DNA from: Lentisphaerota bacterium
Lineage (GTDB): Bacteria > Verrucomicrobiota > Lentisphaeria > Victivallales > Victivallaceae
DNA length: 64,000 nt
Direction: 5' to 3'
Assembly (NCBI GenBank): GCA_037144075.1
Contig: JBAWXM010000001.1
Location: 910-64,909, forward strand
Shown: positions 2,427 through 64,000 of the stretch, piece after piece
How the letters are laid out: each line of letters opens with the position of its first letter
Position numbering within the stretch: position 1 is the stretch's first letter
The notes under the pieces: model-generated
Told to the model about the DNA's origin: nothing
Databases searched by the model: none
Seen by the model: the letters and a program-made list of their open reading frames with translations, nothing else
Position numbers and translations under genes: made by a program

Positions 2427-2651
2427 TATTTATTTTTCCGTGTTTTTAGGAGTTGTAAAGAAATAAGTGGTTTTATACTGAGGGTATCGGGGAGAAATTT
2501 TTGGGTTGCCGGAGAGGAGCAAAGCCATAGCGTTGTAACGAACCGGCAAAGCCGAAAGTGCCACCGGGGCTCCAGTAGAAAGTACCAGTTATTTTTGAAC
2601 GACTCCTTAATGGTAAAATCTGTGGTCAATCAAATAATTTCGGGAAAAAGC

Positions 2652-3260
2652 ATGAATAAAATGAAACATTCGCAGGAAGGCCAGGCAATCATTGAAATGT
2701 GTGTTTGCGTGATTGCCATCCTGGTTGTTTTCCTGGGACTGATTTTTGTCGGCGGACTGGGAATATCCAACATGCAGAATTTAATTAAAGCTAAAGCCAG
2801 CGCCGAAACGCATTCCCGGGTATCGGACAAATCCTGGGACAGCGACGATATTTTCGCATGGGATTATCGCAGCCAGCAGCAGCAGCAGCGCCAGACTACC
2901 GAGCCGGATTTTTTTCCAGGCAGCCATCTTTTCTATAACAGCCGGGTCGGCGGTATCAACCCGTTTGCTGCAGACCGCGCGATAGTAGGCAATGTCAATG
3001 CCGTCAACCCCAGACCGGTTGCGCCTCCGGTTCCTGACGACTTTCAGAGTACGTTTCTCCGGGAACTGAGTCCCTCAAATCAGGCTAGAAAAAATGAAGC
3101 TGCGGCTGGCGGCATTTCCCGCAATATTCCCCCGTTGTTTGTCGGCGCCGAGGAAGTTACCGGCGGCAAGGAACCGGAAGAGTCGGCATTCCCTGACATG
3201 ATAGAGAGCGACGGACTCAAGGAAAAGTCCGGCAGAAATACCAAGCCCGCCGCGAAGTAA
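2652..3260 (+). CDS. TadE-like pseudopilin-type protein (paralogue of 1692-2351)
   Basis: MNKMKHSQEGQAIIEMCVCVIAILVVFLGLIFVGG has the same G-x4-E plus hydrophobic helix. It shares the IFAWDY/IYAWDY block with the upstream paralogue. The ATG at 2652 is preferred over the TTG at 2595. Confidence 0.5.
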   Translation: MNKMKHSQEGQAIIEMCVCVIAILVVFLGLIFVGGLGISNMQNLIKAKASAETHSRVSDKSWDSDDIFAWDYRSQQQQQRQTTEPDFFPGSHLFYNSRVGGINPFAADRAIVGNVNAVNPRPVAPPVPDDFQSTFLRELSPSNQARKNEAAAGGISRNIPPLFVGAEEVTGGKEPEESAFPDMIESDGLKEKSGRNTKPAAK

Positions 3261-3273
3261 AAGAATACAGGAT

Positions 3274-3480
3274 TTAACCACAAAGACACAAAGGCACAAA
3301 GAAATCCATTTTTTATTATGAAGAGCCGGATGAGGTTAAGGCAGATGAATAATATTTTCAGTGTTTTTCAGAGTGTTCCGCGGTTGAAGACGGTTTTTGA
3401 TTTTTACCTGAAAAAAGTTTTCTCTGTGTCTTGCTAACTCTCGGGTTAGTCCCGCGACTGCGGGATGTGTTTGTGGTTAA
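3274..3480 (+). mobile_element. MITE-like ~207-nt element, left copy, abutting the carbonic anhydrase stop codon
   Basis: It is the near-perfect reverse complement of 4438-4643 (about 4 mismatches by manual alignment). Its own ends are inverted: TTAACCACAAAGACAC ... GTGTTTGTGGTTAA. It contains an internal hairpin CCCGCGACTGCGGG. Confidence 0.75.
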
Positions 3481-4239
3481 TTACGGCTGGAAGAATTCGA
3501 TTTTGCCGCTTTCAAGGTCAGCGTAAGCTCCGACAATTTTCAGTTTGCCGGAAGCCGCCATTTTTCTGAGCGGCTCACTGCTTTGCAGCATTGCCCGGCA
3601 GACCAGCCGGATATTTTCTTTGTCGGCGTCGTCAATCAGTCTGTCTTCGGTAATGTTGGGGTCTTTTTTCCCGGCAATCAGAACTGCCGGGATCAGGCTG
3701 CACACTACGGAATTCAGCGCCGGCGTTGTGTTGCTTTCTGGCTGGCGCATAAGTTTTACCGCCGCCGTGACGGCGCCGCAGGAATGGTGTCCCATTACCA
3801 CGATCAACCGGCTTGTGGAGTGAAGCGCGGCATATTCAATGCTGCCAAGCGTGTCGGGGAATAGTTGATTGCCGGCATTCCGCACGACAAACAACTGTCC
3901 AAGTCCGGCGTCGAAAAATATTTCCGGCGGAAAACGTGAATCCGAACATGCAAGAATAGTGGCGAAAGGGGACTGCCCGTTGAGCAGTATTTTGCGTACG
4001 TCCTGGCCGACGCCAGGATCTTTCAGCCTGTTCGCCGTTGCATATCGCCGGTTTCCGGCTTTCAGCATTTCAAGCGCTTTTTCCGGCTGGATGACCACGA
4101 CATTCTGTCCGCCATTTTCCAAAAGCGCCGCGGCGTCTTTATCATTTTTCTGCTGGCGATTGAAATAAAGAGCCGCAAAAACAATAAGTCCGAGGACGGC
4201 TGTAACTATAAAAAAAACTGTAAGATTAGTTCTGCGCAT
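3481..4239 (-). CDS. Beta-class carbonic anhydrase with N-terminal membrane anchor/signal
   Basis: CSDSR ... VVRNAGN ... GHHSCGAV are the beta-CA zinc-ligand motifs (C-x-D-x-R, H-x-x-C). The N-terminal hydrophobic segment is LTVFFIVTAVLGLIVFAALYF. Confidence 0.9.
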   Translation of the reverse strand: MRRTNLTVFFIVTAVLGLIVFAALYFNRQQKNDKDAAALLENGGQNVVVIQPEKALEMLKAGNRRYATANRLKDPGVGQDVRKILLNGQSPFATILACSDSRFPPEIFFDAGLGQLFVVRNAGNQLFPDTLGSIEYAALHSTSRLIVVMGHHSCGAVTAAVKLMRQPESNTTPALNSVVCSLIPAVLIAGKKDPNITEDRLIDDADKENIRLVCRAMLQSSEPLRKMAASGKLKIVGAYADLESGKIEFFQP

Positions 4240-4262
4240 AATTTAGCAAGCTCCTGCAAAAA

Positions 4263-4298
4263 CAGAATTCAGGAGGAAGGAGTCAGGAGCCAGAATTG
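4263..4298 (+). repeat. Short interspersed repeat family D (CAGAATTCAGGAG...GTCAGGAGCCAGAATTG)
   Basis: A related AGTCAGAATTCAGAATTCAGGAGTCAGAATGG block occurs at 23688-23721. Confidence 0.5.
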
Positions 4299-4437
4299 AA
4301 GGCATAAAATTCTCCATCTTGAAATTATGAAATGTCATTGCTGTTGTCTTCATCTAGTTGTTTTATCCTCATCTTTATTATTTTTTTATAAAATAGACTC
4401 AATAACCTTAAAAAGCAATCTGAACCTGAGAACTTTA

Positions 4438-4643
4438 TAACCACAGAGATATCCCGCAGTCGCGGGACTAACCCGAGAGTTAGCAAGACACAGAGAAAAC
4501 TTTTTTCAGGTAAAAATCAAAAACCGTCTTCAACCGCGGAACACTCTGAAAAACACTGAAAATATTATTCATCTGCCTTAACCTCATCCGGCTCTTCATA
4601 ATAAAAAATGGATTTCTCTGTGCCTTTGTGTCTTTGTGGTTAA
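4438..4643 (-). mobile_element. MITE-like ~206-nt element, right copy (inverted relative to 3274-3480)
   Basis: It is the reverse complement of the left copy and ends 5 nt before the AraC gene stop codon. The track ORF 4480-4722 inside it is considered spurious. Confidence 0.75.
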
Positions 4644-4648
4644 TAAAT

Positions 4649-5512
4649 TCATCCCCTCTTTCCCTGGCGGAAGTGCACCGGTGAAGTGCCGATATACCGC
4701 TTGAATTGAGCTGAAAATTCATAAGGGGAGGAATAGCCCAGCCTGGCCGCTATTTCCGCGACCGGAATGCCGGGGCTGCCGAGCATTCCGCAGGCCATGT
4801 CCAGCCGGCGCCGGATCCGGTACTGCCACGGCGATATGCCGCAGCGCTCTTTAAACATTTTCCTGAAGTACTCATAACCCACTCCGTATTTCCGGCAGAA
4901 TTTGTTAAGGTCGCAATCCTGATCGAAATCGCTGCCGAGTATCCGGCAGGCCTCCTCAAAAACCAGCAGCCGGTCTTTCGCTTCCGGCGGCGCGTGCATC
5001 CTGCGGTGGCATTCGCCGAGCAGGCTTACTGCGCGTGAGACCAGTTCCGGCAGCATATCTTCATTCGCCGTTTTCAGCGCCTGGACAAAATCCCACACCT
5101 GCCATTTTAAATCGTCGTCCAGCGGCAGCGATGATACCGGCGAGCCGGCGCGGATAACCAGCATAGCGCTCAATGCCTGATACAGCAGCGGCCCCACTTC
5201 CAGGTAAAATTCGCTCCATTCGCTGTCCGGATCAACATAATTGGAATGAGACTTTTGCGGAAAACGCTGAAAACAGCTTCCCGGCCCCAACTGCCAGGTT
5301 TCGCCGTGGTCGTCAACGTAGCTGCCGCGGCCTTGCAGCGCCACCACCAGGACGTAGCGGGGAAAGCGAAAATTGACGTTGTCTGCCGTTACGCCGCCTT
5401 TGTACATGAATCCCGCGCCGATTCCTTCCCGCGAGCCGGTTCCGCCCATGGATCGGTATGCGGCTTCCCGATGCCTGGGAGGTACAAACGGAGTGTTTTT
5501 ACCATTTAACAT
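4649..5512 (-). CDS. AraC-family transcriptional regulator
   Basis: The C-terminal double HTH reads ...FCRKYGVGYEYFRKMFKERCGISPWQYR ... IAARLGYSSPYEFSAQFKRYIGTSPVHFRQ. It is divergent from the GH35/GH2 genes. Confidence 0.85.
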   Translation of the reverse strand: MLNGKNTPFVPPRHREAAYRSMGGTGSREGIGAGFMYKGGVTADNVNFRFPRYVLVVALQGRGSYVDDHGETWQLGPGSCFQRFPQKSHSNYVDPDSEWSEFYLEVGPLLYQALSAMLVIRAGSPVSSLPLDDDLKWQVWDFVQALKTANEDMLPELVSRAVSLLGECHRRMHAPPEAKDRLLVFEEACRILGSDFDQDCDLNKFCRKYGVGYEYFRKMFKERCGISPWQYRIRRRLDMACGMLGSPGIPVAEIAARLGYSSPYEFSAQFKRYIGTSPVHFRQGKRG

Positions 5513-63741: not shown

Positions 63742-63956
63742 AACAGGGATAGACAGGATATGCAGGATAAGAAAAACCGTTTCATCCCGCAGGCGCGGGA
63801 ACATGAAGGTAATGAAGAAAATACATGTAGTCAGTGAATGCATGCGGCGTAACCGCATTCATCCGCTGACTCCGTTTTTTGTTCCTATTTCGTGTCTTTT
63901 TGTGTTTTTCGTGGTAAGAAATGGATTCCTCTGTGCCTTTGTGTCTTTGTGGTTAA
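63742..63956 (+). repeat. Chimeric repeat: family A motif plus a partial MITE-like element
   Basis: It starts with AACAGGGATAGACAGGATATGCAGGATAAGAAAAA and contains the CCCGCAGGCGCGGG hairpin. It ends AAATGGATTCCTCTGTGCCTTTGTGTCTTTGTGGTTAA, matching the outer end of 4438-4643. The interior differs. Confidence 0.6.
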
Positions 63957-64000
63957 AGTCCCGGCACGGCCGGTTAAGTATATAAAAATTAAGACAAAAC

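Follow-up and report, generated by a model that had tools for sequence, protein, structure and literature searches.

The 64,000-nt window analysed here (contig JBAWXM010000001.1 of the Lentisphaerota bacterium assembly GCA_037144075.1; C1:910-64909 of a 5.7-Mb genome in 693 contigs) contains a beta-carbonic anhydrase (CA) gene bracketed by two near-identical inverted arms of ~207 nt. The arms are best explained, with a probability of about 0.75, as sister gene-less copies of a widespread octamer-array hairpin repeat that have settled around a resident CA gene, and not as parts of a CA-carrying transposon. Comparison with related genomes indicates that the CA gene is resident and that the two adjoining intergenic sites were colonised separately, long ago. 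Occupation of the right site goes back to the common ancestor of several species, with fixed boundaries and differing interiors, and the left element is limited to this species and one other lineage, being absent elsewhere without a footprint or a target duplication. The near-identity of the two arms is most likely the result of local copying or gene conversion, since the right site keeps its boundaries while its interior varies between species. The repeat design has ends formed by TTAACCAC and three CACARAG units, in inverted arrangement; it is scattered through intergenic DNA across the genus and occurs with the same arm sequence in many phyla, its gene-carrying members holding a small PF13366 gene (GxxExxY nuclease of the PD-(D/E)XK fold) between identical ends.

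Table 1. Coordinates of the CA locus, the parts of one arm and the distal composite repeat in the window.
Feature	Position	Strand	Remarks
TadE-like pseudopilin gene	2595..3260	+	convergent with CA; open reading frame (ORF) without Pfam match
Left arm, gene-less hairpin element	3274..3480	+	plain head left, hairpin-bearing head right; inverted copy of 4437-4643
Plain head (module A)	3274..3307	+	TTAACCAC, then three 8-nt CACAAAG-type units, then AAATCC
Element body	3308..3417	+	in this genome confined to the two arms; holds a 39-codon ORF, probably no gene
Hairpin-bearing head (module B)	3418..3480	+	inverted octamer array; nested double hairpin (3434-3449, 3450-3465) after the outer unit
Beta-carbonic anhydrase gene	3481..4239	-	PF00484; resident chromosomal gene; N-terminal hydrophobic segment
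CA upstream region	4240..4436	-	likely promoter region; outside any repeat
Right arm, same element inverted	4437..4643	-	hairpin-bearing head 4437-4499, plain head 4610-4643
AraC-family regulator gene	4649..5512	-	PF12833, PF00165, PF02311; on the strand of CA, upstream of CA
Composite repeat	63742..63956	-	shares with the arms only the 42-nt plain head (63915-63956); remainder other arrays and palindromes

Geometry and anatomy of the arms

The repeat search returned the pair 3274-3479 and 4438-4643 as an inverted repeat of 206 nt with 98% complementarity. Compared base by base, 3274-3480 and 4437-4643 differ at five of the 207 positions (3299/4618, 3467/4450, 3469/4448, 3471/4446, and 3480/4437), which confirms the near-identical inverted arms of the preliminary description, where about 4 differences in ~206 nt had been counted. 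The stretch 3300-3466 has no mismatch to the partner arm. The likeness breaks off sharply at both element termini, and the DNA outside the arm pair is unrelated between the two sides (GGAT... and TAAAT...).

The arms are found immediately after the stops of three genes, CA, pseudopilin, and AraC. The left arm directly adjoins the CA stop at 3481 and is separated from the pseudopilin stop by 13 nt; the right arm lies 5 nt from the AraC stop at 4649, so that the spacing to CA and AraC is as first described. The CA upstream DNA between the gene and the right arm (198 nt) can be aligned to the related genomes G001, G002, and G003 and to the metagenome contig L221 as far as the element boundary, and it contains one weak sigma-70-like match (4338-4309). 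Pfam also bears out the earlier naming of the two genes: CA matches PF00484 with an E value of 3.9e-35, being the sole CA match in the genome, and its neighbour is of the AraC type. The large gene adjoining the pseudopilin gene shows a faint PF13400 Tad match.

Each arm is itself an inverted-repeat element, its ends being inverted arrays of 8-base CACARAG units that start with TTAACCAC. The terminal inverted repeat within each arm (TTAACCACAAAGACA / TGTGTTTGTGGTTAA, 15 nt, 93%) and the internal GC hairpins (3434-3449 and 3450-3465 in the left arm) were both recovered, as had been claimed from inspection of the letters. Folded as RNA, the arm is predicted to form one long hairpin (-54.6 kcal/mol, z = -3.9; none of 200 shuffles folds as well), the outer stem of which is made by the pairing of the two octamer arrays. 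The 95-nt interior (arm positions 43-137) has only two BLAST copies in the genome, one in each arm. This agrees with the earlier suggestion that the arms are sister copies produced by recent duplication or gene conversion.

Two other candidate functions for the arm sequence were set aside. The 39-codon ORF was rejected as a gene because its changes relative to the L221 copy are almost all non-synonymous (~1 synonymous and ~8 non-synonymous by our own count). The Rfam scan of 2500-5500 gave only sub-threshold snoRNA-like matches on both arms (Afu_198, E about 0.2), which were treated as chance.

The CA locus in related genomes

The comparison of orthologous loci, proposed in the preliminary description as a check, finds CA in place and in the same orientation with or without the arms. 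The CA orthologues in G001-G004 share 77-81% amino-acid identity and occupy the same locus in the same orientation. The order pseudopilin-CA-AraC and its orientation are kept in G002, G003, G004, and L221; in G001 the AraC gene and the orientation are kept and the left neighbour is different, and contig L223 spans the pseudopilin-CA side only.

Empty left sites exist. In G002, G004, and L223 the position is taken by a short spacer only, in G003 by an unrelated element resembling a repetitive extragenic palindrome (REP), with a GTCAGACAGGAATGTCTGAC palindrome, and in G001 by a small ORF. Contig L221 represents a different lineage, with 83-90% identity to this genome and 88-96% to G002, and its left site is filled by an element of 203 nt. 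The position is exactly that of the left arm in the window, and the element shares 91% identity with the window arms. The flanks in L221 match those of the empty site. The filled site of L221 reads GGAT(TTAACC...GTGGTT)AACTACGG, with the element in brackets, and the empty site of G002 and L223 reads GGATAACTACGG. The two states differ by exactly 202 nt with at most 1 nt of ambiguity, which leaves no target duplication and no footprint. Relative to L221, the first unit is CACAAAG in this genome and CACAGAG in L221 at both ends of the left arm, a paired change that fits with arm complementarity having been kept.

The spot after the CA stop holds different selfish-looking inserts in different species. 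In G001 (L035) the small ORF, MESSSKHYIGYSSDLRQRLLDHNAGK..., lies within the ~440 nt beyond the CA stop and is, by eye, a candidate GIY-YIG nuclease; ahead of this ORF, TCGTCTAAGAG(T/A)GAATATGTATTATAC occurs twice in direct orientation.

At the right site, the boundary GAACTT|TATAAC is common to this genome, G002, G003, and L221, and the boundary GTGGTTAA|TAAA to this genome and L221. The interiors between these boundaries differ in every species examined, and G001 and G004 have no element. The outermost octamer of the right arm, ATAACCACAGAGATAT, holds three of the five arm mismatches and matches the orthologous sequence in G002, G003, and L221; apart from this octamer, the right arm has the sequence of the left arm. 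The right-site interiors of G002 (L032) and L221 are densely filled with other short tandem arrays (GGACTGATA x8, GTTTTAG x7, TTCTGACTCC repeats, and GGATATT repeats).

Six more loci are filled or empty among the species (C16, C75, C647, C257, C528, and C166, filled in G000/G002/G003 and empty in G001/G004), and fixed boundaries with differing interiors recur at the C75 and C647 loci. Most of the other cross-species empty sites are too diverged for placing the junction at base level.

A separate 165-nt stretch is also shared with L221: window 2448-2610, which precedes the pseudopilin gene, matches L221:3165-3329 with 92% identity. In L221 the segment has the CA upstream DNA on one side and the right-hand element on the other, and it is another relocated or repeated intergenic module.

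Dispersal of the repeat within and beyond the genus

The view of the arms as members of a dispersed intergenic family, bounded by inverted repeats and polymorphic for presence, is supported by the head copies and by the filled and empty loci. A genome-wide search for the 16-nt head with 0-1 mismatch gave 82 matches, compared with 2 for a reversed-pattern control, and in the window the head motif occurs three times where 0.05 occurrences are expected by chance. Altogether, about 80-130 head copies are present in the genome, mostly intergenic, a number to be read as a lower bound because the heads help to fragment the assembly. Just 14 of the 82 heads (17%) fall inside ORFs of at least 150 codons, though such ORFs cover 86% of the genome, and 27% of the heads lie within 300 nt of a contig end, compared with the expected 7%. 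About 17 paired-head elements of the TTAA...TTAA type (103-371 nt) have interiors unrelated to each other, and the hairpin-bearing head is present in about 35 copies, with further copies in G001-G004. The full 207-nt element is represented by the two arms only, while the heads are multicopy.

Every one of the five species of the genus has the modules, whereas 36 genomes of other genera of the family and order gave no match (E <= 1e-5). The arm sequence itself reaches much further. The degenerate 28-mer TTAACCACARAGRCACARAGRCACARAG was found in >118 contigs, which include Acidobacteriota, Planctomycetota, Pseudomonadota, Cyanobacteriota, Chloroflexota, Lentisphaeria/Victivallis, and others, where by our estimate its chance expectation in the searched contig collection is far below one. 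It mostly occurs as an arm-loop-arm hairpin, the partner arm lying within 300 nt for 55 of 84 heads, and two Lentisphaeria contigs with the 28-mer share even the flanking motif of this genome, in keeping with a Lentisphaeria-like organism.

The more divergent partial copy reported at 63742-63956 holds up in part: its 42-nt head is common to the arms, and the remainder consists of unrelated repeat modules. A second repeat family, with the ends TATAGGAATTTGTAT... and ...AGTCCCGGCGCAGCC(GGTTAA), has an internal TTAA at which an octamer-array element is found again and again. Its sites are C8:9573-9790, C17:16850-17035, and C208:7910-8090 of G000, and 63957-63985 with about 63742-63765 in the window. 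In comparison with G002, the whole second-family composite is inserted after ATTTAA, and in G003 a member of the second family without the octamer-array element is found beside the CA gene. At C166:9616-9860 of G000, an 89-nt copy of a gene 3' end (98% identical) lies on the inner side of an octamer head, so that the head has a copy of the gene end on either side; the genes next to it are tandem paralogues.

Association with PF13366 genes

This genome has five PF13366 (GxxExxY) genes, and each of them has such repeats on both sides. Three are enclosed by a single pair of inverted arrays and two are placed between two complete hairpins, and the array type varies by gene. A strict detector, which asks for three-unit arrays of period 8 on both flanks, flags two of the five PF13366 genes and 3 of 14,420 control ORFs; it misses the other three because their arrays have periods of 9-10 nt or two units only.

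The gene-carrying unit C265:6229-6676 (448 nt) has TTAACCACAAAG...CTTTGTGGTTAA ends, exactly those of the CA arms. The same protein subfamily is intact in G004 (contig C2), again between TTAACCACAAAG...CTTTGTGGTTAA ends, and it is also present in G001. The G003 member of the subfamily (contig C79) has one stop codon and is enclosed by hairpin-bearing arms, which match the end of the CA arm at 91% identity over 66 nt. The literature search returned no paper linking PF13366 to such repeats, with 'GxxExxY', PF13366, and TIGR04256 being mentioned in passing only, and the array strings were not found in the literature searched.

Proposed history of the two arms

The outermost octamer of the right arm, matching other species while the rest equals the left arm, suggests that the right-hand interior was overwritten by the left arm sequence, or that a single source overwrote both interiors. 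The divergent octamer would then be what is left of an older element resident there. The likely route is gene conversion that starts from the terminal arrays common to both elements, and, the ends being palindromic, a copied interior could land in either orientation. The inverted arrangement of the arms therefore needs no special explanation. A GxxExxY nuclease acting on the arrays may help the elements to spread or to exchange their interiors. At the CA locus, the only likely effect of the elements is that the CA, pseudopilin, and AraC genes are each followed by strong hairpins.

Several points weigh against this explanation. Element movement and conversion are both read from sequence comparison, and the link between GxxExxY genes and arrays appears as an association by co-location. 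The C265 gene, the sole TTAACCAC-ended cassette in the genome, is decayed, with a 15-nt loss (GLLES motif) and a 3' frameshift. Similar GxxExxY proteins are placed between different array types (C36 and C33), so that no strict cognate relationship of protein and arm is evident. The absence of a target duplication is observed at one clean locus, between lineages with 88-96% identity. The arm of L221 shares 91% identity with the window arms, compared with only 83% for the adjacent CA gene, and its presence may reflect either shared ancestry followed by precise loss elsewhere or an independent site-specific insertion. Finally, the centre of the arms may have been collapsed in SPAdes-type assemblies, in which case the identity of the arms would be slightly overestimated.

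Independent assemblies and strain variants

Three independent contigs encode the identical CA protein and are all collinear with both arms: a 120-kb NCBI contig (99.97% identity over 6.8 kb), a 92-kb ENA contig (100%), and a MEGAHIT-named k141 contig, L234 (97.7%), whose arms agree with one another at 192 of 199 positions. An assembly artefact, a possibility raised in the preliminary description, is thereby refuted. A fourth metagenome contig (99% identity) covers the left arm and its flanks. In the SPAdes-named and MEGAHIT-named contigs, which come from different samples, the arms differ at 5-7 positions. Two 1-kb Logan contigs terminate within both arms, which is what an inverted repeat should produce in a short-read assembly graph.

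Only two of 6,759 positions distinguish strain L232 from the window, 3381 (C>T) and 4536 (G>A), which are mirror positions of the arms; L234 has the T in the left arm only. The mirrored difference may be either a conversion event or a polymorphism collapsed by the assembler, and it was not relied on as proof of gene conversion because bubble collapse in a k55-type assembly could give it. In L234, 43 of 48 differences are found in the AraC gene from 4808 on (42 from 5002 on; region 4808-5336), which suggests a recombination breakpoint inside the AraC gene, and the CA gene and the right arm are almost unchanged relative to the window.

Alternative explanations

A chimeric or duplicated repeat, created during the assembly of a fragmented metagenome-assembled genome, could be suspected from the 693 contigs, the heads at contig ends, and the Logan contigs that break within both arms. 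Such an origin has a negligible probability in view of the same collinear structure in independent assemblies of different samples, with arms that differ among themselves, and of the left arm found at the same site in a related lineage. In the preliminary description the locus was likened to a composite transposon or an excisable cassette, with the arms as miniature inverted-repeat transposable elements (MITEs). Classical MITEs moved by a DDE transposase, and acting jointly on the CA gene, would account for the small size, the terminal inverted repeats, and the apparently non-coding nature of the arms, for the multicopy heads, and for the exact bracketing of a single gene. This is highly improbable. 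The composite transposon fails because CA almost always stands between the same genes and in the same orientation, whether or not a relative has the arms (only the left neighbour in G001 differs), and the sequences outside the pair are unrelated. The arms are not classical MITEs because the 202-nt filled/empty difference leaves no room for the TTAA or TA duplication that was expected as a hallmark; likewise, no matching flank bases outside the TTAA were found in the 17 paired elements. The arms, 207 nt each, contain no transposase and no conserved ORF, and no transposase is bounded by heads, the sole well-ended head pair of >0.4 kb enclosing a GxxExxY gene. No head pairs 0.7-3 kb apart with both ends at 0-1 mismatch, and no autonomous transposase element, were found in this assembly, the fragmentation of which limits the search.

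A programmed switch, in which recombination between the 206-bp arms would flip the 958-bp CA segment and so control expression, is suggested by the gene and its upstream region being flanked by near-identical inverted repeats, between which homologous recombination is physically possible. It is nonetheless very improbable. The promoter region flips together with the gene, so that inversion would not obviously switch expression; relatives do without the left arm; and no recombinase is present among the immediate neighbours checked (pseudopilins, AraC, GH35). A single orientation is seen in four same-species contigs and in all related genomes and contigs that span the locus, with no inverted variant among them. 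The arms could also be kept for use, as bidirectional terminator or insulator hairpins that separate convergent and tandem genes, or through arm-to-arm pairing in a read-through AraC-CA transcript, which would be an RNase III substrate. The stable predicted fold, the position directly after three gene stops, a terminator-like hairpin with a T-rich tail at 3449-3466, and the better conservation of the L221 arm (91%) than of the adjacent coding sequence (83%) speak for such a role. It is unlikely, however, as G002, G004, and L223 have a short spacer in place of the element, the right-site interiors are freely replaced, and the terminator-like matches in the region (4, with a mean of 2.9 in shuffled sequence) are not in excess. 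A selfish origin is compatible with it, and a structural or regulatory side-effect of the hairpins, including arm-to-arm pairing in the putative read-through transcript, is possible.

A partnership with a REP-associated tyrosine transposase (RAYT) or with IS200 was considered and rejected: the genus does have PF01797 (Y1_Tnp) genes, but the repeats beside them are IS200-type hairpins or a different REP-like palindrome, not octamer arrays. In G000 (C153:8200-9250 and C490:2200-3100), a RAYT-like Y1 transposase gene lies between REP-like palindromes (GTTCCGTTAGGAAC; CCCCGGATTTTAATCCGGGG), and another Y1-like fragment adjoins a GTCAGACAGGAATGTCTGAC palindrome, the one that fills the CA-left site in G003.

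Relation to known systems and significance

The closest design is that of the 'class 2 predicted global regulator binding sites' of Geobacter metallireducens, which are paired on opposite strands at a variable distance, each with three tandem repeats of the consensus TCTCCGTS[Y], and which are multicopy and listed beside genes (Aklujkar et al. 2009, PMC2700814). This consensus is the reverse complement of a CACGGAGA-type octamer, and the arm ends described here, with two to three tandem ~8-nt CRCRRAG-type units, inverted and at a variable distance, follow the same design. The Geobacter sites, however, were reported as putative regulator sites in one genome, without mobility, a cargo gene, or a cross-phylum distribution; in the present arms the unit is CACARAG, tagged by TTAACCAC, and a nested double hairpin is found at one of the two ends. 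With the REP/REPIN-RAYT systems the arms share the short, palindromic, dispersed intergenic copies, the gene-less copies that far outnumber the gene-carrying ones, a small enzyme gene flanked by repeats, and the lack of a target duplication. The enzyme is different, being a GxxExxY protein of the PD-(D/E)XK fold here and a Y1 HUH protein there, and the arms are arrays of tandem units here and a single REP palindrome there.

The Correia elements of Neisseria are MITEs that originate from DDE-type transposition and duplicate a TA target. They resemble the present elements in size (100-400 nt), terminal inverted repeats, intergenic position, and hairpin-forming transcripts, but here the filled/empty pair has no duplication and no transposase with the same ends was found. 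From composite transposons, which likewise bracket a single gene by two inverted copies of one repeat, the locus differs in that the arms have no transposase, CA is syntenic in arm-less relatives, and no duplication flanks the unit.

A bolder proposal, which we consider speculative and rather doubtful, is that the octamer-array elements are a class of selfish DNA in their own right, spread across phyla and dependent on the service of GxxExxY nucleases of the PD-(D/E)XK fold. Such elements would enter and leave precisely, without target duplication. At a site already occupied, they would exchange their interiors in either orientation through gene conversion that the nuclease triggers and that starts in the palindromic arrays. 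On this view the CA locus was caught in the act, the interior of one element having been overwritten by that of its neighbour, with the old octamer as a scar.

For the CA locus itself the outcome is deflationary: the CA gene is not mobile cargo, and nothing suggests a switch. The wider value of the locus lies in natural-history data, namely an exact 202-base difference between filled and empty site without target duplication, and fixed boundaries with interiors swapped between species, on a very widespread repeat design that is hardly described in the literature. The repeats explain part of the assembly fragmentation in the genus. The GxxExxY subfamily with TTAACCAC ends is present in several species of the genus, being intact in one and decayed here, and the 'MITE-like' label may thus be replaced by testable statements on how the elements move and on the role of the function-unknown PF13366 family.

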